Assembly: GCA_963665235.2 (NCBI GenBank)
Contig: CAXXLX010000001.1
Coordinates: 1,760,001 to 1,824,000, forward strand
DNA length: 64,000 nt
Direction of reading: 5' to 3'
From: Candidatus Poribacteria bacterium
Lineage (GTDB): Bacteria > Poribacteria > WGA-4E > WGA-3G
Shown: piece by piece, positions 2,347 through 62,003 of the stretch
How the letters are laid out: every line of letters starts with the position of its first letter
Numbering within the stretch: the first letter of the stretch is position 1
Notes under the pieces: model-generated
Told to the model about the DNA's origin: nothing
Database searches by the model: none
Seen by the model: only the letters and a program-made list of their open reading frames with translations
Translations under genes and position numbers: made by a program

Positions 2347-2420
2347 GAGAAGAAATTGTTTTCTTTCTTTGGTTTTCAATAGCCAACAGCCATTGTGGGT
2401 TTTTCTGCGTTCAACCCGAC

Positions 2421-3197: not shown

Positions 3198-3200
3198 AAC

Positions 3201-12405: not shown

Positions 12406-12417
12406 TTCCTCCTTTAT

Positions 12418-46371: not shown

Positions 46372-46400
46372 ATTATACCACATATATGCAAAAGAGTCAA
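46372..46400 (-). promoter_or_regulatory. Sigma70 promoter for the HNH/OLD unit
   Basis: TTGACT-N17-TATAAT; the region is homologous to 41005-41135. Confidence 0.7.
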
Positions 46401-46416
46401 AAAATATTTTTACAAA

Positions 46417-47155: not shown

Positions 47156-47348
47156 ATTTTACAAATGATTTTTTTCTTCTGTTGAAAACAGAATTGAAAA
47201 TCTGAATAGCGGATTATTGCATAGTAGTTTGGTATCGGAATAGGTTTCTCTGCTGGGTTCTGTGCTTGTCTTTCTATGTGAAAAAGGTTGCCGCCGTTCG
47301 CGACGGCGGCGATTCTTCTGGGCCATATTCTGCAATTGGTTGCTTCGT

Positions 47349-48434
47349 TCAACTTAACGCTTGCTCCAGTTTTGCCCCAGTACTTTCAGGCGGCAGCCTA
47401 CGAATCATGTCATCTGCCATAGCTTTTCCGCCAACTTCCCCAGTCCTGCCTTTGTATTCTCCATCCTTACGCCAGTCTATTCCGGACACAGCTTCGACGA
47501 GCCGCTTAACGTTGTCCCAATTCATACCCATCTCCTCGCTATAACTACGCGAAAAAATGTGTGCCCCTGTATGCGCCCACGCTATGAAACCTGTTAACTC
47601 AAGCAGTTTATACTTGAAGGCATACCTTGGGCTGCCCTTTATTTCGGGATTATCGAGTTTCTCAATATCCGACCATTCCTCATAAAGCTGGTCAGCAATT
47701 ATCGTCCAAAACCGGGACATGAATTCAATCTTTTGACTAACATCTAAGTCTTGAACAGCCCCAATAGAAAACAAGCGTTTAACCTGCTTTTCTACACTAT
47801 TAAGATTGAAAAGATGCATGCGCTGCATGCTAGTACGGGTAATCCTTCCCTTAAATAGACTGTCGGATTCTTCGTTGAGCCCCCACCCAACTTGCACTTC
47901 ATCTGTATCTTCTAGATATGCAGTCAGTGCCTTAGGCACTCCCTTTTGGGAGTTATTGACGACGACAAACTCCTGCTTTTCCTGCTCAAGAGTGAGATCA
48001 GGCAAAAGGATGAAGGAGATGTCACGTACATCGTCTTCGGATTCATACAAATCCACAAAACCACCAAGACGATGCTGCCCATCAACAATAGCTGCCCGCG
48101 CTTGGATGATAAGCCGCCCCGAATCTTGTTCATGTCCGCCGGGTTCAAATTGCCAATTTCCGCGTCCAGAAAGAAGGACCGGCGGCACCACGCTGTTTGG
48201 GTTCTCCTTAAGGAACCGGGCGAAGGCTCTCATTCGCGATAGTGAGCCGGGCCGCTGGTAACCTTCTTCTACAACCTCATTAAGACATGTCTTGGAACTG
48301 GGTTCAATGACCGGAACAAAAGTCACGTTCTTAACCTTATCTGAAGGAATTGTCCCAAATAGGTACTTCTGGTCCCCTTGAGTCTTCTGGATGACTCCGT
48401 TAATTTCGCCAATTCCGTTAATCTCGTTGTTCAT
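47349..48434 (-). CDS. DGQHR (DndB/DpdB-like) domain protein
   Basis: GYQR, IVDGQHRL and F..VN..QK motifs. Confidence 0.88.
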   Translation of the reverse strand: MNNEINGIGEINGVIQKTQGDQKYLFGTIPSDKVKNVTFVPVIEPSSKTCLNEVVEEGYQRPGSLSRMRAFARFLKENPNSVVPPVLLSGRGNWQFEPGGHEQDSGRLIIQARAAIVDGQHRLGGFVDLYESEDDVRDISFILLPDLTLEQEKQEFVVVNNSQKGVPKALTAYLEDTDEVQVGWGLNEESDSLFKGRITRTSMQRMHLFNLNSVEKQVKRLFSIGAVQDLDVSQKIEFMSRFWTIIADQLYEEWSDIEKLDNPEIKGSPRYAFKYKLLELTGFIAWAHTGAHIFSRSYSEEMGMNWDNVKRLVEAVSGIDWRKDGEYKGRTGEVGGKAMADDMIRRLPPESTGAKLEQALS

Positions 48435-48437
48435 TAT

Positions 48438-49802
48438 TTAACTCCTTTCAACCCGAAGGTTTGGAATATACGATAGTACAACTACAAAAAAAGATTCGTC
48501 GTCTTGATACTCAAATAACCATTCATTCCTTTTACGTAAGTTTGCAGCGAATCCGCTATGGCGGAAATCCCAGCAGATTACGAGGTTTACTTGATTATGA
48601 GGATGGTTATGATCAAAAAAGCTCTCAAAATAATGCTCCACTTCGATTGCTACGAACATAGATTGAACGTCAACTTCTCTTATTTGGTATGACGCTATTG
48701 CATCTATTCCTGATCGGGCCGTGTATTCCCATAAGCAAAATTCATGAAAAGGAAGTGCATTAAGGGCTTCTAGTTTGGCTAACAAAACAAGCACCTCATT
48801 CTCATTTGAAGGTACGAGCATCACCGGTTTATCATTAAAGATAATTCTGTCTCCTTTCCGTGCTCGTTCCTGCCTTTGCTTCAGGCTATCCGCGGCTCTA
48901 CTTTGTCGTTCCCACTGAATTTTTTGCTCATAGTCCTTGAAACAATTTGATTCTGTAACTAAAATTAGAGCACTTCTAACAGAATCAATCAATTTGTTAA
49001 TAAGCTCACTTGTGCGATCTAGCTGCACTGCGGTCTGCCTTAAGTTTTCGCTGCTGACTTCCACAATCCAATGTGCACTTTCAGTATCACTTGTCAGCCA
49101 GTTCTTCTGTTCCGGGACAAGTGGGCCGGACCTGGTGTATATCTCATCATCTTTAAGCAATGGAGAAGTATAAAAATTAGCCTGCCCTATATGTTTCCCA
49201 TTTGTATCGGACAAATTTACCTGGGTAGTGAAACTGTCTGTGGCTCCCAATTTAATTTTGTATCGACTTTCCGGGTGGATCAATTGCTCATTCCCAAACA
49301 CCTGCCAACGAATGGAGTACTCTGATTCTGCAAAATCTGACGACCCGAACCAAGTGTTTTCCAAAAAGTAGGAATGAACAGCGGAATCTTTTTGGATTTC
49401 TGATGGTACAGAGTTGGACTGCCAAAATCCCTCTAATCTTAAGAGAAAATTTTCTTTCAAATCCGAATGCTGAAGTGTCATTAAATTTAAGGCTGGTGGA
49501 TTCTTGAGAAGCTCGGTAGTATTTCCAGTGAAATATTTTCCCATTTGACGCAAATAGAATGCATCAGCAAAAAAAATTTCTTCCAACGAACCATCAAGTA
49601 ATATCAGAGCATCCTCGTCAGAAACAGTGGTATCACAGTTGATTTTCACGGTTGTTCGGCCCAGACCATCAAAAGTGAATTTAAAGGTCCAGCAGCATGG
49701 CGGAAAGCGATTGACGAGTTCAGCTATCCGTAGTGGATTAGAATTATTATTGAGATGCTCAGAAATTTCAGACCAAGTTCGCTTTAGATTTAACTCAATC
49801 AT
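48438..49802 (-). CDS. Hypothetical protein with C-terminal PD-(D/E)xK-like nuclease domain
   Basis: PSNENEV...GIDAI...IEVE...F..HNH...VICW pattern. Confidence 0.6.
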   Translation of the reverse strand: MIELNLKRTWSEISEHLNNNSNPLRIAELVNRFPPCCWTFKFTFDGLGRTTVKINCDTTVSDEDALILLDGSLEEIFFADAFYLRQMGKYFTGNTTELLKNPPALNLMTLQHSDLKENFLLRLEGFWQSNSVPSEIQKDSAVHSYFLENTWFGSSDFAESEYSIRWQVFGNEQLIHPESRYKIKLGATDSFTTQVNLSDTNGKHIGQANFYTSPLLKDDEIYTRSGPLVPEQKNWLTSDTESAHWIVEVSSENLRQTAVQLDRTSELINKLIDSVRSALILVTESNCFKDYEQKIQWERQSRAADSLKQRQERARKGDRIIFNDKPVMLVPSNENEVLVLLAKLEALNALPFHEFCLWEYTARSGIDAIASYQIREVDVQSMFVAIEVEHYFESFFDHNHPHNQVNLVICWDFRHSGFAANLRKRNEWLFEYQDDESFFVVVLSYIPNLRVERS

Positions 49803-50086
49803 TCCAACTCCTCAATCTCGTATCTTGCCATCGAATTCCCGCTCTCTTTACGAATACGTAACTTAATTCCCTTAAAGAGGTCTGAGCTTTTCAGCAGTTC
49901 TTCGAGCGGTTCACTTAACGACTTCGCTGATATGTAAAATAGATACTCAACACTTGTTCTAATCTTCTGGACATGCAGAATAGGAACATACCCCTTAAAT
50001 GTTAAGACGACATTGGGTTCATATATGATTTCAAGTTCTATCTAGCCTATGCCGACTTTTAGTGAGCTCGGATTTTCATTTGACAT
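49799..50086 (-). pseudogene. 95-codon small gene with an in-frame TAG at codon 15
   Basis: GGAGGG RBS, ATG at 50086, TAG at 50042-50044, then open to a TGA overlapping the next ATG (ATGA). Confidence 0.65.
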
Positions 50087-50194
50087 AGCTATACCCTCCG
50101 ATTTTATAAACAGGCCTTGTACAAGAGGAGACTCACAGGATTGAACGCAACCGTTATTACAAACGACATCATCTCCTGCCTACACATCCCATTG

Positions 50195-50704
50195 TCATGC
50201 TCCACTGAGTACTGCAACAAGTCTGCTATCATCCGGGGGGTCCTTCACAGAATCCTCAGAGCACAATAGGTCATCAAGTGCATCAGAGAGATTCCATATT
50301 GGCGGTTGATTGCCCTCGCGTAGCATTTCCACAACGTAGGGAACCCCAGCTGCAGCCAGAGCGTTGGCAATATCCATCATCCGGCGCGGTTCTTGGACAA
50401 TCTCAAGGTTTCCATCAATAGCTATAGCAACAAGCATTATCGCCTGCGCTTGCCAACCATCTGTGTTGAAGATTGCACCGTTAATAATATCAACAGTTTC
50501 CTGCTTTTTTAAATCAACCGGTTCAAGATTCTTACGCGCAGCAAGTGAGAATCCCGTGAACCAGAGATCTACCTTCCGTGGAAAGGGACTTTGATTAGGA
50601 GTTGTACGTCCGCCTGCCTGACAGTAGCGGTCATAATCAGCACGCTGCGCACTAGGTGCGGTTAGTTGCATGTTGACGAAAGGATTGCTGTCTTGATGTG
50701 TCAT
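50195..50704 (-). CDS. Hypothetical protein (DndE-like position)
   Basis: AGGAGG RBS; directly follows the SMC-like ATPase. Confidence 0.65.
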   Translation of the reverse strand: MTHQDSNPFVNMQLTAPSAQRADYDRYCQAGGRTTPNQSPFPRKVDLWFTGFSLAARKNLEPVDLKKQETVDIINGAIFNTDGWQAQAIMLVAIAIDGNLEIVQEPRRMMDIANALAAAGVPYVVEMLREGNQPPIWNLSDALDDLLCSEDSVKDPPDDSRLVAVLSGA

Positions 50705-50721
50705 ATTGTCCTCCTAATAGC

Positions 50722-52848
50722 CTAGTTTTGGTTTCCCTCAACATCTACTCGCCGCTTGCATAATTCACATTCCTGGCGGTGGTTACACTCGCAGCGCAAC
50801 GCCTGCTGCGCTTCCACCTGCGGCTTATTCACTAATATTTTGGGATAATGGGCGGAATTTGTCAGTGTTATTACCTGTCCAACTTCGGCATCCAAGATAT
50901 CTTCGCAGCCTGCAATCTCTGCGCGCGTCAGAAATAAGATAAGTTGTGAACTTTCGCGGATAGCGGTTTTGAGCACTGATCTCTTGACATAACCACTCAT
51001 CATTCCGAGCGGTGTGTCGATTATATTGGGTGCTTTGACTTCACTCACCTTTGTCAGTGCAAGAATAAAGGCAATAGTCAGCGCGCGGCGTGAAGCTCCA
51101 TTCAGGTCTCGGTCAGGGTTTAGAGACGTGTTATTGGGTCCGGAGACCAAAATATCAAACGCTTCGCTGATCTCCGCTTTCCGAATAATTGCCCCCTGTT
51201 CCGGATCGGCACCAATCATCTCCAAGAAGATAGCGTTCATCAATGTACCTACCTTAGCCAATTCCTCATCTGTAATTCGGTTGCAGGAATTCTGAAGTGC
51301 CTGTTCTACATCTCGCGCTACATATAGCCTAGCTAAAGTGAGATTACCTTTCCTTTGCTTAGCGATAAGGTTGTTACGCTCTGCGGTCAAAGACCTATGC
51401 TTTTTCTGTAGAACTTGAAGATCAACTTCACATTCTCTAAGGGTGTTATTGAAGCGAGTTTGCTGCTCAACACATTGCTGTTTATGCAAGCGGAGTTCTT
51501 GAATGTCAATATCCCCTATACCCTCAAGTTTAACTTCAAGTGCCTTGCGCCTTTTCTCTGCCTCTTCGCGTGGTCTTTCAAGTTCATCGCGGCGATTTGA
51601 GATTTCAGCGTACTCAGCAACCCAATCCTCATTAGCGTTCATCTTATTTGGATTTAGGTCCAACGAGCGGTAATAAAGATCCGTGAGCCTCCTTTGGAGT
51701 TCGTCTGCTTTTTGACTTTCCTCAATCAGATGCTGAATATGGTTTCTTCGCTGCTTTCCATTATTTGAAAGTTCATTAAGTGATTCGCCGCAGATACACG
51801 TACTACCCAGGAGACGCTCCTCGAGCACAGGAATCGTTGCACTAGGAAGTTTACCTTCGGCTCGCAACGCGTCTAACTTCTCAAAGCTTTTTGCTAAGAG
51901 CGGTGCAAGCAGATCTCGGGATAAGGAGAGGTTTCTAAACAATTGTGAATGTGCTTTTTCTATATCAGCTTCCAGCTCTGCAATCCGTTTTAGTTTTGAC
52001 GCTGTCTGCTTTAGTTCACGTTCAAGCTCTTCTCGGTTTCCCCTAAGTAATGCTGCTTCAATGTCTTTATCAATTTCGGGCAGCCTATGAGTTACCTTGT
52101 CGAGTTGTAATTTCGCGTCATCCCTTTTTTTCTCAAGGTCCAAGATTTTCTTATCTAGTTGTTCCAATTCTGTAGCGGTTTCCGCGAGTTCCGCTTTATC
52201 GGAATCCAAATTCTTTGCATCCTTGTTAAGCTCAGCAGCCGCTCCTTTCAAATGCTTAAGGGCGGCTTCAATCGCTTCAATTCCCAACAGTGATCGAATT
52301 GCTTTCCGAACCTGATTACGCTTGTCCGTTAGCGATTCCGCCTCAATAAAACTCAGTGCTCGGTCGCCATCAGTGAAAAACACTTCCCGTAACTCAAAAC
52401 GTAGTAGTTCATTCTGAATCCAAGCATCAGGTGGATCTATAGGTTCAGCACCAATATCTGTTATCTTAAACAACTTTACTTCTGATGTCGGGTTTGCACC
52501 ATTTAGTGTCTGCTCCCGTATAATACGGTATTGACTCACGGTTTCTCTTGAGTTTATATTCCGGCTCAATTGAGATGTCTTTTTCTCAAAGTCAACCTGT
52601 ACGGATATCGTAATTTTGCTTCCTTTTGACGTATCCCAATCGATCGGATGTAGGCGGTACTTCTTGCCCTTTTCCGGCAATACGGCGTTACCGTAGAAAG
52701 CCCATTGGAGTGCGTTTAAAATCGTGGTTTTCCCGGTGTCATTTTCCGCTCGAATAACCGTTAGTTTTTTCTCACTATCTGTTGAGAAATCTAATCTTAA
52801 GTCTCGGAGCAGCCGAAAATTTTTAAATTCCGCGCTGATGAGTTTCAT
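50722..52848 (-). CDS. SMC/DndD-like ABC ATPase with C-terminal CxC...CxxC
   Basis: NFR, AENDTGKT, FFTDGD, long coiled coil with central CICG, LNGAS signature, IIDTP, C-terminal CECNHRQECELC. Confidence 0.85.
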   Translation of the reverse strand: MKLISAEFKNFRLLRDLRLDFSTDSEKKLTVIRAENDTGKTTILNALQWAFYGNAVLPEKGKKYRLHPIDWDTSKGSKITISVQVDFEKKTSQLSRNINSRETVSQYRIIREQTLNGANPTSEVKLFKITDIGAEPIDPPDAWIQNELLRFELREVFFTDGDRALSFIEAESLTDKRNQVRKAIRSLLGIEAIEAALKHLKGAAAELNKDAKNLDSDKAELAETATELEQLDKKILDLEKKRDDAKLQLDKVTHRLPEIDKDIEAALLRGNREELERELKQTASKLKRIAELEADIEKAHSQLFRNLSLSRDLLAPLLAKSFEKLDALRAEGKLPSATIPVLEERLLGSTCICGESLNELSNNGKQRRNHIQHLIEESQKADELQRRLTDLYYRSLDLNPNKMNANEDWVAEYAEISNRRDELERPREEAEKRRKALEVKLEGIGDIDIQELRLHKQQCVEQQTRFNNTLRECEVDLQVLQKKHRSLTAERNNLIAKQRKGNLTLARLYVARDVEQALQNSCNRITDEELAKVGTLMNAIFLEMIGADPEQGAIIRKAEISEAFDILVSGPNNTSLNPDRDLNGASRRALTIAFILALTKVSEVKAPNIIDTPLGMMSGYVKRSVLKTAIRESSQLILFLTRAEIAGCEDILDAEVGQVITLTNSAHYPKILVNKPQVEAQQALRCECNHRQECELCKRRVDVEGNQN

Positions 52849-53089
52849 GAGATTTCTCCTTTTCTATTTCGGATATGTTCAGCTTCTCCATGAGAAAATC
52901 GCCTGCCTTGTAGCATATCTCGTTTACTTGTTTCTGAATATGTGTGCTTTGCACAAGATTTTTCTTCTCTGCCTGAAGGATTTCGACTATAACATCAACA
53001 AGTTTTTTCTCATATCCTTCATACCTCTCCTCAAGGAATTCACACTCCCTGAGAATAAGGTTTGCCATCTTTTGCGGGTTGAATGACAT
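52823..53089 (-). CDS. Small helical protein coupled between the helicase and the SMC ATPase
   Basis: Probable start MSFNPQK at 53089; overlaps the ATPase start. Confidence 0.7.
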   Translation of the reverse strand: MSFNPQKMANLILRECEFLEERYEGYEKKLVDVIVEILQAEKKNLVQSTHIQKQVNEICYKAGDFLMEKLNISEIEKEKSHETHQRGI

Positions 53090-53099
53090 AATTCCCCCT

Positions 53100-55217
53100 T
53101 TATCCATTGATTGCTTTAATCAACCGATCGATAGTGCTCAATGGCCCATCAGGTCTGGCATAATTCGTTGCAAGGCTAGCAAATGCTTGCACTCGCTTGA
53201 GTTCTGATCGAATCAAAGTCCGAGCCTTACTGTCAAGATTATCCAGGTCCGGCGGTAAAGCGATAAAGTCGTGAATTTCGCTGTGCGTTTTGTCAGTTTC
53301 ACGACATGTCCGGAGAAGCCTTCCACGACGCTGGACCCACTGTCGTTCTACTGTTGTGCTCGCTAGGATGAACGCCCTTTCAATCTGTGGTATGTTGACT
53401 CCTTCATCAAGCACACGTTTTGCAGTCAGAATTCCCAATGTTCCATCTTGAAAGGATTGGATAATCTGCGTCGTTTTTTTATGTTTACTTGTTTCATCAC
53501 AAGTGAGTTGATGGAAAAGCACCCCGCTGTCTTTCAGTAAAGCGTTGACCGCTTCAAGTTGCTGCGGTGCCTTGTCAGAGGCATAAATCAACGTGTATCG
53601 GAGGTTCCGCAAACCTTCATGGTTCAAAACCTCTTTTAGCGCGTCAATTTTATTTTTCGCGTTCTCCAGAATCGCGCGCCGGGCTACGAGTAGCTTGGTC
53701 AGATACTCATCAGGGTCATCGTCCTTCTGTTGCCAGGCATTTTTCTGGATTTTCTCTGTGATAGCATACCATTTCTCCATCTCGCTCTCCGTGAGTTCCA
53801 CAGAGTGGACATAGTACTCGTATTCAACGAGGCATCGCCCGATGGCCTCCTCAAGCGTGAATTGAAAAACGATAGGCCCGAAAAACGCAAATAACTGCTC
53901 CGTTCCCAGCTCATCATACTGACGAATAGGCGTTGCTGACAACCCCAACCTATAATCGAAAAAAGAGGGCGGTTCCGTTATGAATCCCTCGCTGCCGAGG
54001 TTGTGTACTTCGTCTGCAATGAGCAAGGTATTACAGCTAAACTTTTCAAGTTCGGTTTTAAACTCACTCTTGCAAAGCGTCTTGTGAGACACCACGACAA
54101 TCTCAACGTCGCTTACTTCTGCTTGGAATCGGTGTTTAATGCGCTTGAGTTCATGTGCCCATCCACTTGCACCGCCTGCTTTAGTAAGGTTGACCGCGGT
54201 GAGTCCAAAAGGTTCAATTTCATCACACCACTGTTGAATGAGTGGAATATACGGTGCCGCCACAACGATAAGAAGCGGTTTGTGCGTTTTGTAGAGTCTG
54301 TGTGCACATATCATAGCGGCAATTGTCTTGCCAGATCCAGTTGCCATTTCCAAAACACCTTGATATCCAGCCTCACACCACGCACTGACCGCTCTACCTT
54401 GATGTTCAAACGGCCCCTCCTCAAATTGAAGTTCCGAAGGTATAGCAAATTCTGGACGTGATACTCTGAAATTGTTAGTTGCCTCGCCTATTTGCATCGT
54501 CCCTACCGCTTTTTTGTAGAGTTTACCGAGTTCATCCTCTGTTGGCGGCGTATCTGAACGGTAATTTTTCAATAGATTTTCCTCAATGGCTTTAGGCATC
54601 GGAATGACAATGCAATTCTCATCCTGATTTGCCCAGAGCTGTTTGAACTCTTCACAAAATTTTTCCGTAATATAGTGCTGGTTGGCATCTTCCCACGATT
54701 TAGAAATGGAAATCTGCTCAATATTTTTCTGAACCCCAGCGTACGTCATATTACTGGAACCATGCGCTGCTATCACGTCATCCCCTTCGCGAAAGAGCCA
54801 GACTTTTGGATGGAACAAGGCATCTTGCATCAACGCAATTTTGATTTCAATGCGTCCGTTGTGCAATAACCACGTAAGACATTTCAAGGTATGTTGCGCG
54901 ACAGCGGATTCTGTGACAACAAAACCCTCTAAAGCGGTACTAGCGATATCTTCTGGCGCAGCTACGCCTTCCACGATTGCCTCCCTATCTTCCGTTCGGA
55001 GTAGTGGACTAATAATCAAGCGTAAACTTCCGTTTGAGCAGTTTACGAAGGTTGCTAAGCCTGGGGCGAGCGACACAAGGATTTCGCTTGAAAAGAAACC
55101 CATCATGCAATTAATTTGAGTGGCAGCGCGGAAGCACGGAATAAGTACGTCCTCTACCACCGGCTCTCTTGGGAGCATATAGAGTGGTCGAATATCAGGC
55201 ATTGCCCGGAGCATCAT
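53100..55217 (-). CDS. PLD-like nuclease plus SF2 (DEAD/DEAH) helicase, Dnd-associated restriction-enzyme type
   Basis: FHPKVWLF...GSSN (HxK), MATGSGKT, DEVH, SAT, LDEGVNIP, QRRGRLLR. Confidence 0.85.
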   Translation of the reverse strand: MMLRAMPDIRPLYMLPREPVVEDVLIPCFRAATQINCMMGFFSSEILVSLAPGLATFVNCSNGSLRLIISPLLRTEDREAIVEGVAAPEDIASTALEGFVVTESAVAQHTLKCLTWLLHNGRIEIKIALMQDALFHPKVWLFREGDDVIAAHGSSNMTYAGVQKNIEQISISKSWEDANQHYITEKFCEEFKQLWANQDENCIVIPMPKAIEENLLKNYRSDTPPTEDELGKLYKKAVGTMQIGEATNNFRVSRPEFAIPSELQFEEGPFEHQGRAVSAWCEAGYQGVLEMATGSGKTIAAMICAHRLYKTHKPLLIVVAAPYIPLIQQWCDEIEPFGLTAVNLTKAGGASGWAHELKRIKHRFQAEVSDVEIVVVSHKTLCKSEFKTELEKFSCNTLLIADEVHNLGSEGFITEPPSFFDYRLGLSATPIRQYDELGTEQLFAFFGPIVFQFTLEEAIGRCLVEYEYYVHSVELTESEMEKWYAITEKIQKNAWQQKDDDPDEYLTKLLVARRAILENAKNKIDALKEVLNHEGLRNLRYTLIYASDKAPQQLEAVNALLKDSGVLFHQLTCDETSKHKKTTQIIQSFQDGTLGILTAKRVLDEGVNIPQIERAFILASTTVERQWVQRRGRLLRTCRETDKTHSEIHDFIALPPDLDNLDSKARTLIRSELKRVQAFASLATNYARPDGPLSTIDRLIKAING

Positions 55218-55250
55218 CCCATTATCTTTCTCCTTTCAAATACGCTCAAG

Positions 55251-56087
55251 CTATTTATGGCAAATCAGGCACGGTTCCTCGTCGTCCTCGTCGTCGTGGA
55301 CATCGGTGAGGATTTCTATGAGTCGACGATTCGGTTTCGCCGTTTTCTTAGATGCTATCGCCTTTTCAGCGTTTGCCTTAATCTGCGCTATTCGTTCGGG
55401 TTGCGACAACTCTTCTAAACTTTCACCTTGACACCATGTAAACCTTTCGCCTGTTTCCGGATTAAATTTCTCGTAATCCTTGGCGAGTTCGAAAAGGTCG
55501 GGATGCTGCTCTAAAAGCCCTACCCACTCAGATTTGCGTTGGAAGAAGCAGAAATAACATCCGGAACGCGTCCGCCACTGGTAATAATCGGGCAAGCCAA
55601 GGCCACTTTCCTCCAGAATTCGGTAGACATCCTCTTTAGTAATGCCATCCTCTTTGAAGGGATATTTCGGTTCAATATTACCCAGGCCGGAGGTCGTTGG
55701 AGGCTTATAGCCGATTCGGTCTTCGTCGGCGCGGATAGCGATGTAGTGATACGCTTTGTCATCGCCGACGTATTCCTCAAAAGGTCTTATTTTGAGGTTA
55801 ACAGTGCACCAACGGACTTGCGGCGATGGCAGCAGACCTCCCAAAAGCGTCAACCAGTGATCGAAATCTCGGTTTTTGTGGGAATCGGTATCCATGTTGA
55901 GGCGTTCAATCTTTTTGCCGAGAAATGCCTCTAACCGGTCGAGAAATTCGTAGGTCTCCGGCAATTCCTTACCGGTATCAGAAAAGAAGTATTCCATCTG
56001 TGGTACTCTGTCTCGCATGTAAACTGCAAGTGCGGAGCTATCTTTTCCGCCGGAAAGCCCAAGGAGATGCCGTATTTTTTGTGCCAT
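55251..56087 (-). CDS. sspD: PAPS-reductase-family protein, SspD-like
   Basis: SGGKDS PP-loop, RWCT, IRADE, RSGCYFC, acidic tail ending CLICHK; follows the DUF4007 and ATPase genes. Confidence 0.78.
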   Translation of the reverse strand: MAQKIRHLLGLSGGKDSSALAVYMRDRVPQMEYFFSDTGKELPETYEFLDRLEAFLGKKIERLNMDTDSHKNRDFDHWLTLLGGLLPSPQVRWCTVNLKIRPFEEYVGDDKAYHYIAIRADEDRIGYKPPTTSGLGNIEPKYPFKEDGITKEDVYRILEESGLGLPDYYQWRTRSGCYFCFFQRKSEWVGLLEQHPDLFELAKDYEKFNPETGERFTWCQGESLEELSQPERIAQIKANAEKAIASKKTAKPNRRLIEILTDVHDDEDDEEPCLICHK

Positions 56088-56098
56088 GTTTTCTGCTC

Positions 56099-59000
56099 CT
56101 ATTTTTCAAGTTCCTGCATCCATTTTTGTGAAATTCGCGCCAAAATAGCGATGTGAAGTTCAGGATTATCGGCGACGTTATGAGTATCAAAAATCTTCCT
56201 GATTTCAGTCGCTATCTGCGTAGCCTGTTCATCAGCGGTTGATGGTAAGGTTACAACGCGTTCCTGCTCAGACTGGTTTGGTGCGGTGATACCTACGCGA
56301 ATAGGTTCACCCGCTGCCAATTCAGGATGTTTCCGTTTTTCGTAAGAGACCGCTTCAAAATGCCTAAATTTTCTGGCAAGTTGAGAGAGATTGCTTTCGA
56401 ATCGTGCTTTATCCAAGTCTACCCACGACAGAGGTGGTTTTTTAGCGAGATAGGTTGCAATCGCCTCAAGCCAGCTACTAAAATCGTGCCCACCGCTGCA
56501 AACTTGGACTAAAAATCCTTTGAGCTCGGTTTCAACTGCTATTGTTAACAGTGGTTCAGCCCTATCGGCTAATTCAGCACGGAGTTTTTCCCTTGATGGT
56601 GTTAAAGTGAAGGCTTCCACCAGCATCCGCTCTATGGAATTCAGCAAGACCTCGTAAGCCTGTTCTAATTCGGACAAGGCATCTTGTAACGTGTCGAAAA
56701 ATTCTGAAATTAGTTTTGGATTTAATGTCTGCGCGCCAAAAGCAGAAAATCCGAATGCTTCCGGGAGTTGTTTAAAGAGGAGTTCGTCGGGTTCACGTGC
56801 GCTCAGAACAGTTTTACGGAGATTTTTCGCATTATCACTCAATTCTTGTGTTGACAGAGTGTACTTCGGAAGTTGAGCAATAGCGCGTATGAGCGGGGTG
56901 ACGACAGTCAACAAATCTGGGTTTTCGGTTTCCACCGGTTGGTTGAGCATCTGTAGAAGTTGCGCCAACAGATCAGCACGGATACCTGACATCCGAAATC
57001 GCTTCAGTTCAAATTGTTGTGGTGCCTTAAGCAGCCGTTCAAAGACAGGCATTGACCACTCCGCTACGAAGGAGCCGTTTTCATAGAGGGCAATTTCTGT
57101 TTTGTAGTGGAGTATCACCGCACATAAGAGAATAGGCAGGGGACCACGCCGCACACCGTAAGGGGGTGCCATCAGGTGTTCATAGAGTTCCGAAATGGGC
57201 TGTCGTTCACCTTCACATTTTTCAAGAAAAACCTCAATTGCTTTCCACGTCGGTGCCATTCTGTTTGCGTCAGCGGTTTCCGGCGGGTGAAATCCACGGT
57301 ACCTTGAAACCTCACGATGTATTCCGGTATTCCGTAAGAGAGAGCGGTAGATGCTCATTTCGGCAGGATACCCAGTAATACCGAGGTTTTTCCTATCTCC
57401 ATTTTCAAGCATTCGTTGAATTAATTTCTTTCGAGCGGTCGTTGCAGCCCCGGAGATTTTACGCCGATTAATCAGTTCGTTTTGAATGCAAGGGGTTTTG
57501 TGATAAACTGCATCACAGATATTTGACAGGTATGCGTTTCTTGTCCCTTGAGAGTCAATAGTCCCTACAGATTGTCCTTTATGATACCATATACAAGTGT
57601 CTTTCTTAGTCCCACCAAAAATTGCTGTTAATCTATGAGATATTTCTTGTTCCGCTTGACGCTGCTGGACTGAAAGTTCATCTCTTGCCACTGGGTCGCC
57701 TTCTAATTCCGGGGTGTTTTCGGAAACCCAACGTAGACTGGCGAGTTGCGTAACAGTCTCTTGTAGTGTGCCAATAGCGCGTGGAATTGCAATCAATACC
57801 TCTTTGCGTTCTGCGAGTTTGGAACTGCTCGCCTTTTCGGTGAGCTGCTTGACTTCATGTTCGTTTGCGGGCAATGCATAAAGCACAAGGCCATCTGCAT
57901 CCTCAGGGGGCTCCTCTAAATCGGCATCAAAATTTTCGAGCTCGGTATACCGGACGACAAAGTATCGCAAAGTACCCGTCTCAAATAGGTGTCTTCGTGC
58001 AACGAGCGGGCGCGTCGGCAAATAACGTGCCAGCTCGGCGGCGAGAGCACCTTGCATGTCAATATGCCTTTCCGCTTCGCGGAGTTTTGCCTCAATGTCA
58101 ATATCGCTCCCTTCCCAAAGCGCGTAAGCCTTATTGTAGCGGCGATAGATGACAATTGAACGTTTTCTTAGCATAGTGAGTGCTTCCTCAAATTCACTGA
58201 TAAACCCCTCTGTCCTAACATCTAAGGCGGAACGGAGGAGTTGCCCTGAGGCTTTCAGATTCGGCAGGACTTCACCAACAATATTAAGGACACCAATCGT
58301 CTTAATCAATTGAATCGGCACAGGAGAGGGGTCTGGTAGTCGGTCTAATGCTGATTCAATTTCTGCCCATTTCTTGCCGTTGCGTGAGGCGTACAACCGA
58401 TGTTCCATGTTAGTCTTAAGATAGTCGTAAAGGTTGGCGATTGAAAACAGCGGCGAAAAGGTTCCATTGCAATTTTGGGTAGAGAGGAAGTCTTGTAGGC
58501 CATAAGGTTCACTTGAGCTGAGAAAAGCGAAGAGCGAACGTTCGTTTTGCGCGAATCGTCGGAAAATTGGATTTATAACAAGGGCGACTATTGGGTGCAG
58601 GGGCAGACAATTTTTCAGAAGTTCGCCAAACTCGTCCTCGGTAAGTTGGCTCGGTTTAAGGTCGAATTCAATAGGCAAGGATAAATTTTCTTCCTTATCC
58701 TCTGAAGTCCTTTCGATAGCAGAACCGATGAGGCGAAGAATCTGTTCTGTGGGTTCTATAAAAGCTATATCTTCAAACCGTCCCTGTACCTTTGCCCACT
58801 CCTCCTGTTGTGATTTTGCTAATTTGTTAGCGTATTGTTCAAAGGCTTGGTGCAGAATCGTCAGAAAAAGGAGAGGTGTCTGCTTACTTCGCGTAGCCAA
58901 TTCAGCAAGGGTTTGTAGCACGAACACATCGCCTTGTGCAGGCTCTTGTGCGGCGTACTCAAGGAACTTTCCAAGTTCATCAATTACCAATAACAAACCG

Positions 59001-59590
59001 TGTCCACCCTTTTTCTTGATAGCACGCGTTGCTGATTCAAAAAGATATGTAATTTCAGACGCTTGCAGCGGCGTATCCGTTCACATCGATTTTTCAAGAG
59101 TTTCCCTGATTTTTCGCTGAAGTGAACTATTAGAAGGGACTCCGAAAGTCCTGAGTCCATTCTCCAAACCGCGCAGTAGGGCAGTCGAGAGTGGGGCACG
59201 TTCACCAGAGATAAGCACAGGACAGAAATCTGATAGCGGTTGTCCATTCCCATTTGTACTTGTGAATCTTTCGTATAACGAAACGTCGCCGCCCTTCAAC
59301 AAATTTAGAGCTTGTTGGGTTGTCGAAGTGCTGGGATCTCCGAGCAGCTTCGCGGCAAAAAGCGCGAATGCCGATTTTCCTGAGCCATAGGGCCCCGTAA
59401 TCGACCACGCCCTTGATGTCGCTCCATTTTCAAGCGTTGAAATGACACGCGATAACATCTCCCGAGCTGTAACGGTCAGGACGTACCCATCTAAGACGTT
59501 CCTTGTATCATAGAAATCGCGTTCCAGATGAACCGAGCGGTGGAAACGTCCTTTAACCTGATAGAGATGTGACAAAGGAATATTATCCAT
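56099..59590 (-). pseudogene. sspC: SspC-like large ATPase (1163 codons) with one in-frame TGA
   Basis: Walker A GPYGSGKS in 59081-59590 and Walker B LLVIDE in 56099-58996 share a frame; TGA at 59081-59083 (LEKSM*TDTPLQASE). Confidence 0.75.
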
Positions 59591-60509
59591 AATACCTTTC
59601 TAAAAGTTCCGTTGAGTCTAAATCTTTGTGTCTATAAACCTGTTTTAAACCAGCCGTTTCATCGTATTGCAACGCACCTTCGGTGAGTTCGTTGAGGGAT
59701 TCAAGGTAAGTAGTCATTGTGTCCTCGTCTAATCTAAAAATTCGGCCCGGACTTAATGGTGCGTACATCAGTTCTGAAAACGGTAATTCATTTCTTTTAT
59801 GGAAACTTGCATCCCAAAAGGCGACAAGTGTCGAGGCAAACATTTCAACCGGCAGCGTCTCTTTTTCGCCGCGTTGGAACTCATATCCGTTGTTTTCTGG
59901 CAATTCTGTGATTAAATTGAGTTCAACAAGTGGACAGTCAAAACTCTCCTCAACGATTGTAGTGGTGTGACGTGACTGACAATAGGTTCGGATAAAACAA
60001 CGGATATCCCGTTGAAGTGTATTTTCAGAGACAGGACGCATAGCTGGTTTCTGTTGTCGTGCCCATTCGGACAATTGTTTTTTAAATATGTCAGGTGTGA
60101 ATTGATTTTCTCTGAAAACGTTAAATGCCCAATACCACAAGGTTGCATGATTCATATTAGTCGCAATCTTCCAGTGAATCAACCATAACGTGGCGGGGTC
60201 GTCAAGGTACGGGTCAAATCCGTTGTCGTCGTTAAAAATGTCTCTGCCGAGCGGCGTGAAAACGAATCGCCCACGTTCACGGCCGTCCGCTTTGATCAGC
60301 CCAGCAACACTACACCAGTGCCGGATGGAGGCCACCATATTTTTCCCCACACCTAAAGTAACGGAGACGTTCTCTGCCGAAAAGACAGTCGGATCTTCTC
60401 TGACAGCATCGACCCCCTTCTTCAGCCATGTGTACCGAAACGGAAAAGTTTGGTGGCCGGAGAAGGATAGATTAATTATCTGTGGTGAAGTGCTATACAC
60501 AGTGTTCAA
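59583..60509 (-). CDS. sspB: DUF4007 family protein, SspB-like
   Basis: FSGHQTF..RYTWLKK, LGVGKNMV.SIRHW, DPYL...TLWLIHW, PLVELNLI. Confidence 0.82.
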   Translation of the reverse strand: MNTVYSTSPQIINLSFSGHQTFPFRYTWLKKGVDAVREDPTVFSAENVSVTLGVGKNMVASIRHWCSVAGLIKADGRERGRFVFTPLGRDIFNDDNGFDPYLDDPATLWLIHWKIATNMNHATLWYWAFNVFRENQFTPDIFKKQLSEWARQQKPAMRPVSENTLQRDIRCFIRTYCQSRHTTTIVEESFDCPLVELNLITELPENNGYEFQRGEKETLPVEMFASTLVAFWDASFHKRNELPFSELMYAPLSPGRIFRLDEDTMTTYLESLNELTEGALQYDETAGLKQVYRHKDLDSTELLERYYG

Positions 60510-60923
60510 ATCTTACCTCCCAGAAATGGACCGGCCCCCGATGCAAAAAACAACGTAGGCGAAAAAGGGGAGTTTAGATCGAAGGGGTGAATAGTCGGTA
60601 ACGAAAAGTGCCCGCGGCGAGAACCATTGGGCAAAATAGTCCTCGCGCAGGCACAATGATAGTGCAAAATGCCGAGAAAATTTATTTGGTTTTTACTTAA
60701 CAGATGTGGGGTAGAAGGGGGGGGTAAAACGCAATTTCAGTGCCGCAATCCCTGTTGGAGCTTAGCACAGCAAGCGAGCGACACGGACCAATTCCGCCAA
60801 AATGGCAAGCATCCGGGGTGTTTATTCTCTCAATTGGGGTGTTAGCATGTCCATATATCATTAGCGTTCCCTGTGTGTTGCAAAAAGGAGCTGTGTATCG
60901 CGGCGATGTAGTATTATTTTTTA

Positions 60924-60952
60924 ATTATACTACATTTTGACGCGTTTGTCAA
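60924..60952 (-). promoter_or_regulatory. Consensus sigma70 promoter upstream of the ssp-like operon
   Basis: TTGACA-N17-TATAAT; homologous to 62160-62195. Confidence 0.75.
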
Positions 60953-61013
60953 GTTAAAATTCGTTAGTTCTGCATAGATGTCATGAAAAAATAACGTTAA
61001 GCACCCCGTCATA

Positions 61014-62003
61014 TTACTGTTTCAGAACTTCTTCACGGTGCCACGCCAAAGCATCTTGAGCAGGATAATGTTGTGTGTTTCTAGGTTGCCATATAAGCTT
61101 GTCACGTAATTCGGTTAACATCGAACTCGTTGGCCCTCGCTCGGACATGCAGGGTGAGACAATAATTTGGTATGTTTCACTTAAAGAAATTAATCCAGCG
61201 TCAAAAGCCCAGTGGTGCGATTTGCAGAGAGAAATTCCATTCCGGACATCGTCATTATATGAAACAGAAAACGGAATGATGTGAGCAGCATCAGTCAAGC
61301 TCTCTCCGCTCGATGCACGGACGTGTAATTCACAAACTGCACAGGTGTGTTTGTAGATTTCCATAATCCTCTTGCGGAAACCTGCACTCCGAATTGGAGT
61401 GCCTACTTGAATTGCCTCTGCTTTTTTATGAGATGAAAATGGGCGTCCGGCATCTTCTAGCAATGATTCGCTGTATTCTTCGATGTCCTTTTCAATCTCT
61501 TTTTCCGCGGTTCTTCGTTGTTCTTCAATTACCTTTTCAACTTCATACCTAATATTTGAAAAATAGTGGCTGATAATAGTTTCGCGGAATATTTCCCGAT
61601 ATTCAGGTATAGCTAGTAAAACACAAAGAGGATCATCTAGCTTAGCTGCAGCGTTAACACTAAGAAGTTGATTAGGTGAGGGGGTTGTCCCAGCAGATCT
61701 TGATTGCAGTTTTTGTGGCTTAAGAAACCAGAAACCCTTAGTTTTTAAATGAAAAAACGGATTATTAATACTGGGGTGCCGGTCCTCCGATTCATTTGAT
61801 TTATTGAAAACCTCAATCAGCTCTTCAAAAAAAGAAGATTTATTCTTGTAAATTTCACTAAAGGGAATATTATTTTCGTAGAGTTCACCGCTTTCAATCA
61901 TCTCAATGATTATTAACAAGAGAAACGGTCTGTGAGGGAACTGTCTTTTATCCTGCAAATTCTTAATCTTTTCGATATATTTTTGTAGGACACTGTTAAC
62001 CAT
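61014..62003 (-). CDS. SBD-HNH phosphorothioate-dependent restriction endonuclease-like protein
   Basis: PHRPFLLL...NPFFHL..GFW at the N-terminus; CAVC...AAHI...NGISLC..HH.AFD. Confidence 0.8.
   Translation of the reverse strand: MVNSVLQKYIEKIKNLQDKRQFPHRPFLLLIIIEMIESGELYENNIPFSEIYKNKSSFFEELIEVFNKSNESEDRHPSINNPFFHLKTKGFWFLKPQKLQSRSAGTTPSPNQLLSVNAAAKLDDPLCVLLAIPEYREIFRETIISHYFSNIRYEVEKVIEEQRRTAEKEIEKDIEEYSESLLEDAGRPFSSHKKAEAIQVGTPIRSAGFRKRIMEIYKHTCAVCELHVRASSGESLTDAAHIIPFSVSYNDDVRNGISLCKSHHWAFDAGLISLSETYQIIVSPCMSERGPTSSMLTELRDKLIWQPRNTQHYPAQDALAWHREEVLKQ

Follow-up and report, generated by a model that had tools for sequence, protein, structure and literature searches.

Among the described phosphorothioate (PT) systems, SspABCD-SspE (PMC9646914, PMC13251355, PMC8092258) shares its writer genes with the operon analysed here, and SspE is described as a PT-stimulated NTPase and nicking nuclease (PMC8092258). 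In SspABCD-SspFGH, a multi-gene module lies downstream of sspBCD; SspF carries a Walker A motif, the SspH C-terminus is FtsK-like, and SspFGH is able to coexist with a second effector and to add to its action (PMC8092258). A previous reading of this DNA, made from the sequence only, took SspE or SspFGH for the normal partners of SspBCD, which is too strong, since neither is reported for 2,211 of 2,678 sspBCD (PMC8092258).

PbeABCD, or the CxC ABC-ATPase/DndE-centred system (Xiong et al. 2019, PMC6459918; Aravind group 2024, PMC10853773), is a four-gene module that has been described with Dnd genes, with methylases or with no partner. It was tested by phage assay in haloarchaea alongside DndCDEA, and its protection was lost once PT was abolished (PMC6459918); these assays concern double-strand Dnd marks only. 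The same source reports weak co-evolution of PbeAC with DndCD, many solitary Pbe systems, and 320 of 553 PbeAC pairs with no dndCD nearby (PMC6459918). Two other groups of proteins are relevant here: DndB, a regulator of PT level (PMC10853773, PMC12914056), and the MORC and paraMORC GHKL ATPases, described in restriction-modification contexts (PMC2292703).

The window (the whole 64,000-nucleotide stretch of Candidatus Poribacteria DNA that was analysed) carries a gene run in which SspBCD is followed by two modules, PbeABCD and a separate set of three genes (hereafter the trio). The sequence-only reading had taken the seven downstream genes for one uncharacterised effector module, to be given up if they matched a named system in full; four of the seven are PbeABCD and the other three are separate, so that the match to a named system is partial. 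The locus is best read as a composite PT defence operon whose several stacked reader/effector modules are served by one Ssp writer (probability of about 0.58).

Operon organisation

The genes form one co-oriented, tightly packed run of 11 genes on the minus strand (47349-60509), with intergenic distances of -26 to +108 nt. All ten genes listed in the sequence-only reading were found there, in this orientation. Two candidate transcription signals flank the run:

60924..60952, minus strand: promoter-like site (TTGACA-17-TATAAT), some 415 nt before the start of sspB
47290..47310, minus strand: terminator-like hairpin, about 40 nt past the stop of the DGQHR gene, pattern match only

The first is the sole 12/12 match in a pattern scan of positions 46900-61100, but as promoter-like patterns overall number 22 for 21.0 expected, it is a consensus match and no proof of function. 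In the hairpin, 7 of the 8 stem pairs are G-C, and a T-rich tail comes after the stem (terminator-like hairpins overall: 13 found, 14.7 expected). From the gaps of at most 108 nt, the promoter-like site before sspB and the strong hairpin after the DGQHR gene, the operon is predicted to be one transcription unit.

The Ssp writer

59583..60509, minus strand: sspB, 308 aa, DUF4007 (Pfam PF13182 5.5e-91; PADLOC SspB 1.9e-101)
56099..59590, minus strand: sspC, ORC/BrxC-like P-loop ATPase, 1,163 codons in a single frame that a TGA at 59083-59081 interrupts
55251..56087, minus strand: sspD, 278 aa, PAPS-reductase / PP-loop protein (PADLOC SspD 5.6e-115; PF01507 1.4e-07)

PADLOC matches to all three proteins confirm the Ssp-type writer proposed from the sequence. 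For SspC, the N-terminal piece (residues 13-166) matched at 5.4e-42 and the C-terminal 965 aa at 1.5e-284, with Walker A GPYGSGKS and Walker B LLVIDE; SspD has the motif SGGKDS (residues 12-17), and sspB is the sole DUF4007 gene of the genome. No sspA is adjacent to the operon in the window. As already pointed out in the sequence-only reading, the window holds no cysteine desulfurase, and the 8 Aminotran_5 matches of the genome are all elsewhere. SspB, SspC and SspD, with a cysteine desulfurase whose gene lies outside the window, would place single-strand PT marks on host DNA. Beside the writer, no PADLOC match named SspE, SspF, SspG or SspH was obtained for the 11 operon proteins scanned, and no DUF262 gene lies near the operon, the closest being more than 300 kb off.

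A frameshift in sspC was rejected, as both pieces share one frame and are split by the single TGA. The contigs covering this site in runs X1, X3 and X4 all lack three single bases that are present in the window, located inside or next to short homopolymer runs; the contig depth at the site (X1 4.5, X3 34.4, X4 21.4) comes entirely from two variants, each without the three bases. Deleting these bases gives an open frame of 1,162 codons, a length as in the homologues, which are intact (1,127-1,200 aa). Since no read-derived contig supports the TGA, it is probably an assembly artefact, and the repair of sspC that had been thought necessary is unlikely to be needed. If the TGA of the window is real in some cells, the writer would be dead there.

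The PbeABCD module

53100..55217, minus strand: pbeA, 705 aa, HKD/PLD nuclease domain fused to an SF2 helicase (PADLOC PbeA 4.3e-202)
52823..53107, minus strand: small protein in the pbeB position, ORF of 94 aa, at a conserved place between pbeA and pbeC
50722..52848, minus strand: pbeC, DndD-like CxC ATPase (PADLOC PbeC 9.7e-53)
50195..50704, minus strand: protein in the pbeD position, 169 aa, at a conserved place after pbeC

The order of these genes (HKD-SF2 helicase, small fast-evolving protein, CxC Zn-hook ABC ATPase, small last gene), placed after PT-writing genes, is that of the published PbeABCD. Two differences were found: the writer is SspBCD (ORC-like ATPase and DUF4007, single-strand PT) instead of DndCDEA, and the last gene has no detectable sequence similarity to DndE.

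PbeA contains the Pfam domains PLDc_2, ResIII and Helicase_C and the motifs HPK (136-138), GSSN (153-156), GSGKT (294-298) and DEVH (402-405); its score for NCBIfam TIGR04095 dnd_restrict_1 (375.7 bits) is under the cut-off of 600. Homologues of the protein in the pbeB position align from Met7, which makes 53089 the likely start, and its place is kept in six other loci (L003-L007 and L024; 54-61% identity). It has no PADLOC or NCBIfam match, and an ATP-cone match is weak and sub-threshold; PbeB of H. jeotgali is 66 aa long (PMC6459918).

For PbeC, the PADLOC PbeC model outscores DndD (3.5e-32), and the TIGR03185 score (95 bits) is under the cut-off of 245.85. The identification of the operon ATPase as DndD was rejected, as the protein belongs to the CxC sister clade. 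The Cys-rich tail described in the sequence-only reading is present: a C-terminal CEC..CELC (CxC..CxxC), conserved with a mid-protein CIC (351-353) in 7/7 homologues. That such CxC-ATPase neighbourhoods had been noted computationally, then a guess, is correct (PMC10853773). The 169-aa protein keeps its place in L003-L007 (59-64% identity) and has no match in Pfam, PADLOC, NCBIfam or PDB sequences. Its assignment as DndE was rejected, no similarity being found by any sequence test run, and it is named after the PbeD position; as a lead only, 26 of 30 protein-atlas neighbours (score 0.94) carry PF27807 DNA_S_mod_dnd_assoc_4.

PbeA matches were found in 62 of the 176 genomes of the phylum. In 18 of 23 phylum loci, close PbeA (67-75% identical) is preceded on its own strand by SspD, at a distance of at most 270 nt in 17 loci and of 1.36 kb in one, whereas SspD is found in 0/6 loci of the paralogues at 33-37%. 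Full HNH-SspBCD-PbeABCD operons exist without the trio (L077, L078). Ssp-Pbe coupling is thus recurrent in the phylum. PbeABCD (HKD-nuclease/SF2-helicase, small protein, CxC Zn-hook ABC ATPase and DndE-position protein) may have been inserted as a 5-kb cassette between sspD and older downstream genes. By analogy with Dnd marks in haloarchaea, it would read the Ssp marks as a "self" tag and block phage DNA replication.

The trio

49799..50086, minus strand: p96 pseudogene, first trio gene (tblastn with the intact 96-aa homologue of L005: 61% identity, 7e-30)
48438..49802, minus strand: p454, 454 aa, degenerate MORC-like GHKL and transducer, helical linker, restriction-endonuclease-like C-terminal domain
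47349..48434, minus strand: DGQHR protein, 361 aa, ParB/DndB superfamily, last operon gene (TIGR03187 116.9 bits, cut-off 58.85)

No model of Pfam, NCBIfam or PADLOC matched p96 or p454. The p96 stop overlaps the p454 start (ATGA), and p96 was missing from the list of open reading frames because of an in-frame TAG at 50044-50042 (codon 15), in place of a Trp shared by all ten genome loci that were read. This TAG recurs in X1 record 1, which has 0 differences, and in X3 record 9, whose 1 difference (50085 A>C) removes the p96 ATG in X3 and X4; it is a real nonsense codon. The trio is therefore probably off in this genome.

The two stop codons of the window, TGA in sspC and TAG in p96, raise the question of a system decaying as a whole, with real nonsense codons in both genes and nothing working, and partial loss of the trio in relatives (L076) would fit with this. 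We consider such general decay quite improbable: all of the X1, X3 and X4 depth at the sspC site comes from variants in which sspC is one open frame of homologue length, and none of the other nine genes is shortened relative to its homologues.

In the AF2 model of p454 (pLDDT 85.8), the GHKL and transducer part spans residues ~7-300 and the C-terminal domain ~318-454. Residues 7-300 share the fold of MORC3 and MORC2 (Z 11.9-12.5), the alignment to MORC3 5ix2_A having VIA Z 12.5 and rmsd 4.9 over 260 aligned residues. Unlike MORC, the p454 family has no ATP-binding motifs: it has lost the ATP-lid/G2 segment and half of the N-box that canonical HATPase_c_3 relatives possess, and because of this loss p454 is probably not an ATPase. 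In distant relatives, the equal C-terminal domain is found with a canonical HATPase_c_3. The best structural match of this domain is NucS 2vld_B (Z 5.0) and PD-(D/E)xK nucleases dominate the match list; Foldseek gave no match at E<=1e-3. Residues E334, E336, K343, E345, D367, E387, E389 and H400 are invariant, and a Glu stands where D..ExK normally has its Lys (E387-x-E389). The model thus gives a weak indication that p454 may be a nuclease.

The DGQHR protein is encoded by the only gene of its kind in the genome and matches PF14072 (1.5e-22). Its motifs GYQR (58-61) and DGQHR (118-122) are invariant in 17 sequences and, with the DGQHR domain and the tie to a DNA-modification operon, are shared with DndB and DpdB. 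It differs from both by equivalog scores far under the cut-offs (DndB 34.2 for 328; DpdB 50.2 for 300) and by its constant pairing with p454.

Distribution of the trio

The survey yielded 33 distinct loci with a p454 relative, whose record titles name Poribacteria, Verrucomicrobiales and Burkholderiales. The DGQHR gene lies directly 3' of p454 in all 31 loci with enough flank, p96 directly before p454 in 25/27, and SspD is in the locus in 21/33, which span several phyla and include loci with Pbe and loci lacking it; nine of the 12 loci without SspD end inside pbeA or have less than ~1.1 kb of upstream flank. Pbe is present in 6/33, and the trio stands beside SspBCD without Pbe in L001, L008-L011 and many metagenome loci. 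Co-occurrence with sspBCD elsewhere, for which the sequence-only reading had proposed a synteny survey, was thus found for PbeABCD and for the trio. Ten trio loci, L023 with neither SspBCD genes nor Pbe and the other nine with SspBCD genes but lacking Pbe, contributed 57 flanking ORFs, none of which matched a model named SspE, SspF, SspG, SspH or Pbe; SspA occurs in two of the ten. The trio is present, absent or partly deleted (L076) beside near-identical SspD (79-91% identity); being optional there, it is outside the core writer and is a separate, Ssp-linked unit. The linkage is not absolute, given that G166 (95% complete) has the trio with no match to the SspD query and that no SspD lies in the 2.7 kb of flank upstream in L043.

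These counts bear on whether the modules are mere neighbours in a defence island, with PbeABCD and the trio independent of the Ssp marks and brought together by insertion hot spots. The flanking DNA is indeed a defence island (MzaB-like GHKL ATPase, OLD/AriA-like ATPase, HNH nucleases), and G166 and the PbeAC pairs lacking dndCD would agree with chance adjacency. However, Pbe lies within the ssp operon, with gaps of 33 nt and 108 nt and no internal terminator-like site of note, SspD accompanies close PbeA and not its distant paralogues, and the trio stands beside SspD in 21/33 loci at 24-90% identity. The gene order differs at L037, L039 and L041 with SspD still linked, which argues for selection on linkage. 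With the reported PT dependence of PbeABCD protection also against it, simple adjacency is highly improbable.

The trio is an undescribed three-gene module after SspBCD in many bacteria and a possible new partner for such phage defence. It may be the older partner, travelling with SspBCD across phyla, and our best guess is a split analogue of SspE. SspE joins a ParB-superfamily NTPase domain to a nuclease domain, and the trio has a ParB-superfamily DGQHR protein and a nuclease-like domain at the equal operon place. In contrast to SspE, there is no DUF262/DUF1524 protein, the proposed functions are spread over three polypeptides, and the p454 fold is PD-(D/E)xK-like instead of HNH and fused to a dead GHKL module. 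In contrast to SspFGH, p96, p454 and the DGQHR protein have neither Walker A nor SspF/SspH-like Pfam matches. The ParB-like DGQHR protein would be the NTP-dependent, PT-sensing part, p454 the nuclease, with its restriction-endonuclease-like domain carried on a catalytically dead MORC-type GHKL dimerisation scaffold, and p96 a translationally coupled small subunit.

Alternatively, the trio could serve the Ssp writer as a DndB-like control or accessory unit, setting the place or density of PT or repressing the operon, with only PbeABCD and the HNH nuclease restricting phage. The Pfam family matched by the DGQHR protein is that of DndB, described as a non-essential negative PT regulator (PMC12914056, PMC10853773). 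As DGQHR relatives include this regulator of PT level, the trio could tune the writer and not restrict phage; its place in the ssp operon directly after sspD, the lost ATP-binding motifs of p454 and the weak nuclease-fold match point the same way. DpdB, a DGQHR protein, is part of a DNA-modification step, which also counts for regulation. Against it, the C-terminal acidic and His residues of p454 are invariant across relatives of 24-90% identity and canonical GHKL-fused ones, which suggests catalysis over mere binding. The DGQHR protein also falls far below the DndB equivalog cut-off, and the trio behaves as an exchangeable cassette beside Pbe, much as described for SspE and SspFGH (PMC8092258). 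A regulatory or accessory trio is rated as unlikely, and the split SspE-like analogue is kept as the best guess.

HNH nucleases and the surrounding island

45306..46196, minus strand: PT-DNA-binding HNH restriction endonuclease, 296 aa (NF045808 335.5 bits, cut-off 180)
61014..62003, minus strand: HNH endonuclease, 329 aa, paralogue of the PT-DNA-binding family (Pfam HNH_2 8e-13)

The gene at 45306-46196 is found at the opposite end of the operon, past tandem repeats. Its product is 57-67% identical to that of the gene which immediately precedes sspB in L076-L078 and is, from this similarity, the orthologue of the HNH gene of these relatives; an HNH gene upstream of sspB is also found in G001-G004. 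In the window this upstream slot is filled, across a 504-nt gap, by the divergent paralogue at 61014..62003, which scores 128.5 bits for NCBIfam NF045808 PT-DNA_restrict, under the cut-off of 180. The two HNH proteins are 22% identical over their full length. A PT-DNA-binding HNH nuclease gene would be the third module of the island. Besides the HNH nucleases, nearby defence genes encode an MzaB-like GHKL ATPase and an OLD/AriA-like ATPase whose gene is interrupted by an insertion sequence.

Operon organization and the SspBCD writer

Eleven minus-strand genes are packed between 47349 and 60509 with intergenic gaps of -26 to +108 nt, which bears out the co-oriented run noticed in an earlier, sequence-only reading of this DNA.

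Features of the operon, in order of transcription (positions within the window)
59583-60509, minus strand, sspB (308 aa), first
56099-59590, minus strand, sspC (1,163 codons), second
55251-56087, minus strand, sspD (278 aa), third
53100-55217, minus strand, HKD/PLD-SF2 helicase, PbeA (705 aa), fourth
52823-53107, minus strand, small protein at the PbeB position (94-aa ORF), fifth
50722-52848, minus strand, coiled-coil ABC ATPase, PbeC (708 aa), sixth
50195-50704, minus strand, protein at the PbeD position (169 aa), seventh
49799-50086, minus strand, small gene p96 (96 aa in homologues), eighth
48438-49802, minus strand, p454 (454 aa), ninth
47349-48434, minus strand, DGQHR protein (361 aa), tenth

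As pattern matches only, a perfect TTGACA-17-TATAAT was found about 415 nt upstream of sspB, and a hairpin of 7 GC pairs with a T-rich tail about 40 nt past the DGQHR stop codon. The promoter-like site is contained in a 504-nt spacer (60510-61013) between an HNH gene and sspB, together with two short ORFs on the minus strand, of 53 and 54 aa, that match no family; relatives have a spacer of similar size at the same junction.

The phosphorothioate (PT) writer was identified gene by gene. SspB is the DUF4007 protein (PF13182, 305 bits for a cut-off of 27; PADLOC SspB, 1.9e-101), SspC, matched in both of its pieces by the PADLOC SspC model (best 1.5e-284), has Walker A and Walker B, and SspD is a PAPS-reductase/PP-loop protein with the motif SGGKDS (PADLOC SspD, 5.6e-115). 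On the operon proteins, the DndC and DndD models score far below the Ssp and Pbe models. The window holds no cysteine desulfurase, as had been observed from the sequence; the rest of the genome gives eight Aminotran_5 matches as candidates, four of them at 198 bits or more. SspBCD would write PT with a desulfurase encoded elsewhere in the genome.

The sspC frame is interrupted by an in-frame TGA (59083-59081). The codon falls some 25 residues short of Walker B, in a linker of variable sequence where homologues have an open frame that is one residue shorter. A frameshift was rejected because both pieces share one frame. Recoding is unlikely given two different stop codons (TGA in sspC, TAG in p96), and at the sspC site also because the TGA falls in a variable linker rather than at a conserved residue and the contigs described below are open without recoding. 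The site was compared with assembled contigs (Logan contigs, not raw reads) of three sequencing runs, X1, X3 and X4, which represent three samples of one study; X1 may be the source sample of the window. All contig depth at the TGA (4.5 in X1, 34.4 in X3, 21.4 in X4) belongs to two variants lacking three single bases of the window, either 59077, 59094 and 59101 or 59076, 59095 and 59104, which sit in or beside short homopolymer runs. When either set is removed, sspC becomes a single open frame of 1,162 codons that locally resembles the homologues. On these grounds the TGA is read as either an artefact of the consensus or a haplotype that is rare.

PbeABCD and its junction with SspBCD

All the genes that follow the writer had been taken from the sequence as one uncharacterised effector module. 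The four genes downstream of sspD are instead the named PbeABCD system, and the last three form a separate module. The helicase is matched by PADLOC PbeA (4.3e-202) and has PLDc_2, ResIII and Helicase_C domains, with one HKD-type motif (HPK, GSSN) and the SF2 motifs GSGKT and DEVH. The ATPase scores better with PADLOC PbeC (9.7e-53) than with DndD (3.5e-32); its CIC at residues 351-353 of 708 and its C-terminal CxC..CxxC tail are both kept in 7 of 7 homologues. The ORF of 88-94 aa between PbeA and PbeC, which has six relatives at 54-61% identity, was assigned to PbeB by position only. For the 169-aa protein at the PbeD position, searches of Pfam and PDB sequences returned no match and kinship to DndE was not confirmed by sequence; PF27807 ('dnd_assoc_4'), present on its protein-atlas neighbours, is no more than a lead.

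In the order and the sizes of its genes the module agrees with PbeABCD of Haloterrigena jeotgali, in which PbeB has 66 aa and PbeD 152 aa, and which, in the accessible part of that report, blocked virus SNJ1 only in the presence of Dnd PT marks and did not degrade viral DNA (PMC6459918). As far as the available text of PMC10853773 goes, the Aravind group regards PbeABCD and its own CxC ABC-ATPase system as the same and assigns PbeA as an HKD-SF2 protein, PbeB as a small disordered protein, PbeC as a CxC Zn-hook ATPase and PbeD as a DndE cognate. The suspicion that CxC-ATPase neighbourhoods had already been noted computationally was thus correct. The first-named Pbe pairs with DndCDEA, whereas the Pbe of the window has SspB, SspC and SspD upstream. 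Co-transcribed in this way, PbeABCD would quite probably use the Ssp PT marks as a self tag.

Recurrence of this junction was surveyed in the phylum of the window, where a PbeA query matches 62 of 176 genomes. Among the 30 PbeA loci returned, 23 encode a PbeA of 67-75% identity, and 18 of these are preceded by SspD on the same strand (within 270 nt in 17, at 1.36 kb in one); four of the others have no SspD within 1.5 kb, and in one the contig is cut. Beside PbeA paralogues of 33-37% identity, SspD was found in none of six loci. Three full operons (L076-L078) have the order PT-binding HNH, SspB, SspC, SspD, PbeA-D.

The partners of Pbe described in the accessible parts of the literature are Dnd genes, methylases or none, with no mention of an Ssp-Pbe operon. 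Likewise, no description of this operon or of the last three genes was found there, and the supplementary tables of PMC6459918, PMC8092258 and PMC10853773 may list such neighbourhoods. The writer is ordinary, Pbe is already known and the CxC neighbourhood has already been described computationally; the two elements that appear new against the accessible literature are the regular Ssp-Pbe operon in the Poribacteria phylum and the Ssp-linked p96-p454-DGQHR module. PbeABCD, tested so far only with double-strand Dnd marks, is in one phylum routinely wired to a single-strand Ssp writer, which raises the testable question of how the CxC ATPase system reads its mark.

Distribution and linkage of the p96-p454-DGQHR trio

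The last three genes (hereafter the trio) were followed through p454, which has 86 relatives in a collection of 5.8 billion proteins; apart from one distant GHKL protein, none of these carries a name or a Pfam domain. A profile search gave 323 representative clusters at E<=1e-3. A set of 33 distinct loci was built from 11 genome contigs, 1 further genome and 21 metagenome contigs, after L040 was dropped as identical to L011; L024 perhaps comes from the same organism as L006. The genome record titles of trio loci are Candidatus Poribacteria (9), Verrucomicrobiales (1) and Burkholderiales (1).

In all 31 loci whose downstream flank exceeds 300 nt, the gene for the DGQHR protein comes directly after p454. 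Of 27 informative loci, 25 have p96 immediately before p454, often with an overlap at the p454 start; L011 and L043 have no p96 there. SspD is encoded within the locus in 21 of the 33. Among the 12 loci that show no SspD, eight extend less than about 1.1 kb upstream and at most 1.6 kb downstream, L003 ends inside pbeA and L029 has no upstream flank; L043 and L023 lack it despite 2.7 kb and 16 kb of upstream flank, respectively. In L037, L039 and L041 the ssp genes are downstream on the opposite strand, so that rearrangement has not broken the linkage. Only 6 of the 33 loci have Pbe in the interval from sspD to p96.

In L023 (genome G166, 95% complete), p96, p454 and DGQHR are all present with full-length matches (1077-3763). 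No ssp gene was found within 16 kb upstream or 2 kb downstream of this trio, and an SspD query of the genome gave no match.

The flanks of ten trio loci were scanned; nine of these loci have SspBCD genes but no Pbe, and L023 has neither. No PADLOC model named SspE, SspF, SspG, SspH or Pbe matched any of the 57 flanking ORFs. SspA was found in two of the ten. An SspA/DndA-type cysteine desulfurase gene lies beside ssp genes in trio loci L033 (14938-16062; PADLOC SspA, 2.9e-141) and L039 (9889-11133; 7.9e-136); the window has no such adjacent gene.

Among near-identical SspBCD-Pbe operons, L077 and L078 have no trio gene at all and L076 retains p96 alone. Relative to the writer the trio is an optional unit that behaves like a cassette open to exchange, since it is present, partial or absent beside near-identical SspBCD-Pbe operons and only 11 of the phylum's 176 genomes have p454. 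Trios that are intact, partly deleted or interrupted by a nonsense codon beside such operons constitute a natural series for the study of effector turnover.

Individual loci gave further observations. In L076 (genome G155), which has neither p454 nor DGQHR, a p96 homologue of 62% identity with an open 120-aa frame directly follows pbeD (12136-12498) and looks like a remnant of the trio. The order in L001 (4756-9520) is a ThsB-like TIR protein, sspD, a 238-aa protein, a 717-aa protein with a weak DndB match, and the trio, with sspB and sspC downstream of DGQHR. In L009, a second DndB-like protein (422 aa, 13151-14416; PF14072, 4.1e-33) is encoded just downstream of the DGQHR gene of the trio, and an LRR protein was found upstream instead of sspB.

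Predicted folds and motifs of the trio proteins

The AF2 model of p454 has a pLDDT of 85.8. Residues 7-300 form a GHKL plus transducer module whose nearest structures are MORC3 and MORC2 (Z 12.5-11.9, rmsd about 5 Å, about 260-270 aligned residues; top match 5ix2_A with Z 12.5, rmsd 4.9 and 260 aligned residues, 296 chains at Z>=8), with Topo VI-B, SMCHD1, GyrB and Hsp90 as further structural neighbours. Distant relatives of about 540 aa join the same C-terminal domain to a canonical HATPase_c/HATPase_c_3 domain. Alongside these relatives, the p454 family shows alignment gaps in place of the G2/ATP-lid segment and of the N-box's second half, and its G1 Asp varies. The missing N-box half and lid suggest that p454 is probably not an ATPase.

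The C-terminal domain (residues 310-454) was folded separately (pLDDT 84.9). It had been labelled PD-(D/E)xK-like from the sequence. In favour of this label, the match list from exhaustive structure comparison consists mostly of PD-(D/E)xK nucleases, including SfsA, EcoT38I, BsaWI, LlaBIII, FokI, LmuA, HamA, Can1, Card1 and VRR-NUC; against it, the best match reaches a Z of only 5.0 (NucS, 2vld_B, rmsd 3.3, 91 aligned residues) and Foldseek returned nothing at E<=1e-3. E334, E336, K343, E345, D367, E387, E389 and H400 are invariant in sequences from 24% to 90% identity, and H398 is also conserved; compared with the motif D...(D/E)xK, D367 and E387-x-E389 show a Glu in place of the expected Lys. 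A PD-(D/E)xK-like nature of this domain is plausible but not proven. Against the sequences of solved structures, p454 gave nothing below E 0.06 and the DGQHR protein gave nothing.

The DGQHR protein is matched by TIGR03187 (116.9 bits for a cut-off of 58.85), with the DGQHR motif at residues 118-122; GYQR and DGQHR are invariant in 17 sequences. The main alternative to an effector role, that the trio would be a DndB-like regulator of PT, is considered rather unlikely. The protein was rejected as a DndB/DpdB equivalog, at 34.2 with TIGR03233 (cut-off 328) and 50.2 with NF041060 (cut-off 300).

Searches assigned p96 neither to a family of Pfam, PADLOC or NCBIfam nor to a named protein-atlas cluster. 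Its TAG (50044-50042) replaces a Trp that is invariant in ten genome loci. It is a true pseudogene in the lineage of the window, since the TAG is seen in a 6,973-nt contig of X1 with 0 differences and in a contig of X3 differing only at 50085 (A>C). This last change (plus strand), carried by X3 and X4 contigs, turns the p96 start ATG into AGG and is thus a second disabling change in other samples.

A candidate effector class coupled to SspBCD

The two known partners of SspBCD were considered as identities of the trio. SspE is a single protein with DUF262 (ParB-like NTPase) and DUF1524 (HNH), and no such protein is encoded in the operon; the trio was rejected as SspE, neither domain having a Pfam match there, and the only two DUF262 matches of the genome lie more than 300 kb away. 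SspFGH is characterized by a Walker A in SspF and an FtsK-like C-terminus in SspH. It was rejected with no Walker A in p96, p454 or DGQHR and no such Pfam or PADLOC matches, bearing in mind that PADLOC may not include SspF, SspG and SspH models.

In the boldest reading (probability about 0.4), the trio would be an effector of SspBCD of a third and so far undescribed class, with an SspE-like PT sensor and nuclease split up and built on a MORC-type GHKL scaffold that is dead; this class would explain part of the 'orphan' SspBCD. The readers that a single Ssp writer serves in this phylum, all from the same operon, would then number up to three: the trio, PbeABCD and a PT-binding HNH nuclease. The narrower proposal that an SspE-like sensor-nuclease is split over three proteins is still tentative, at slightly under even odds. 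The analysis establishes gene identities, folds, synteny and which modules are present or absent, whereas the functions proposed here are inferred. The DGQHR protein would act as NTPase and PT sensor, the C-terminal domain of p454 as nuclease and its dead GHKL module as a dimerisation or clamp scaffold, with p96 as a coupled subunit. The trio without SspD in G166 and the tolerated loss of p96 are more in line with a module that does no harm in the absence of PT (SspE-like logic) than with an attacker of unmarked DNA; they fit decay equally well.

About 84% of 2,678 sspBCD clusters are given as having no known restriction partner in the accessible part of PMC8092258. The trio, conserved after sspD in several phyla, offers a concrete candidate for one of the missing partners, and this role is testable by standard plaque assays.

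Surroundings of the operon

Two HNH genes flank the operon. The 296-aa product of 45306-46196 is a full member of NF045808, 'phosphorothioated DNA-binding restriction endonuclease' (335.5 bits for a cut-off of 180), and is the orthologue of the HNH gene preceding sspB in relatives. The 329-aa product of 61014-62003, upstream of sspB, remains below the cut-off of 180 with 128.5 bits and is a divergent paralogue.

The region 46399-47173, which separates the terminator-like hairpin after DGQHR from the gene for the PT-binding HNH protein, contains three tandem copies (46442-47025) of a unit of about 214 nt, each with a palindrome of 32-36 nt, bracketed by 39-nt inverted repeats (46399-46437 and 47135-47173). 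The long plus-strand ORFs of this region are probably not genes.

Further along, 39094-40800 encodes a 568-aa HATPase_c_3 protein that is MzaB-like (NCBIfam, 79.4 bits for a cut-off of 850; PADLOC MzaB, 1.1e-17); this GHKL protein was ruled out as a relative of p454 (hhalign probability 0.3). An OLD/AriA/GajA-like AAA_15 ATPase gene is present in two pieces (N-terminal 44609-45274, C-terminal 42185-43315), split by an IS630-type element (HTH_32 44096-44569, DDE_3 43419-44045).
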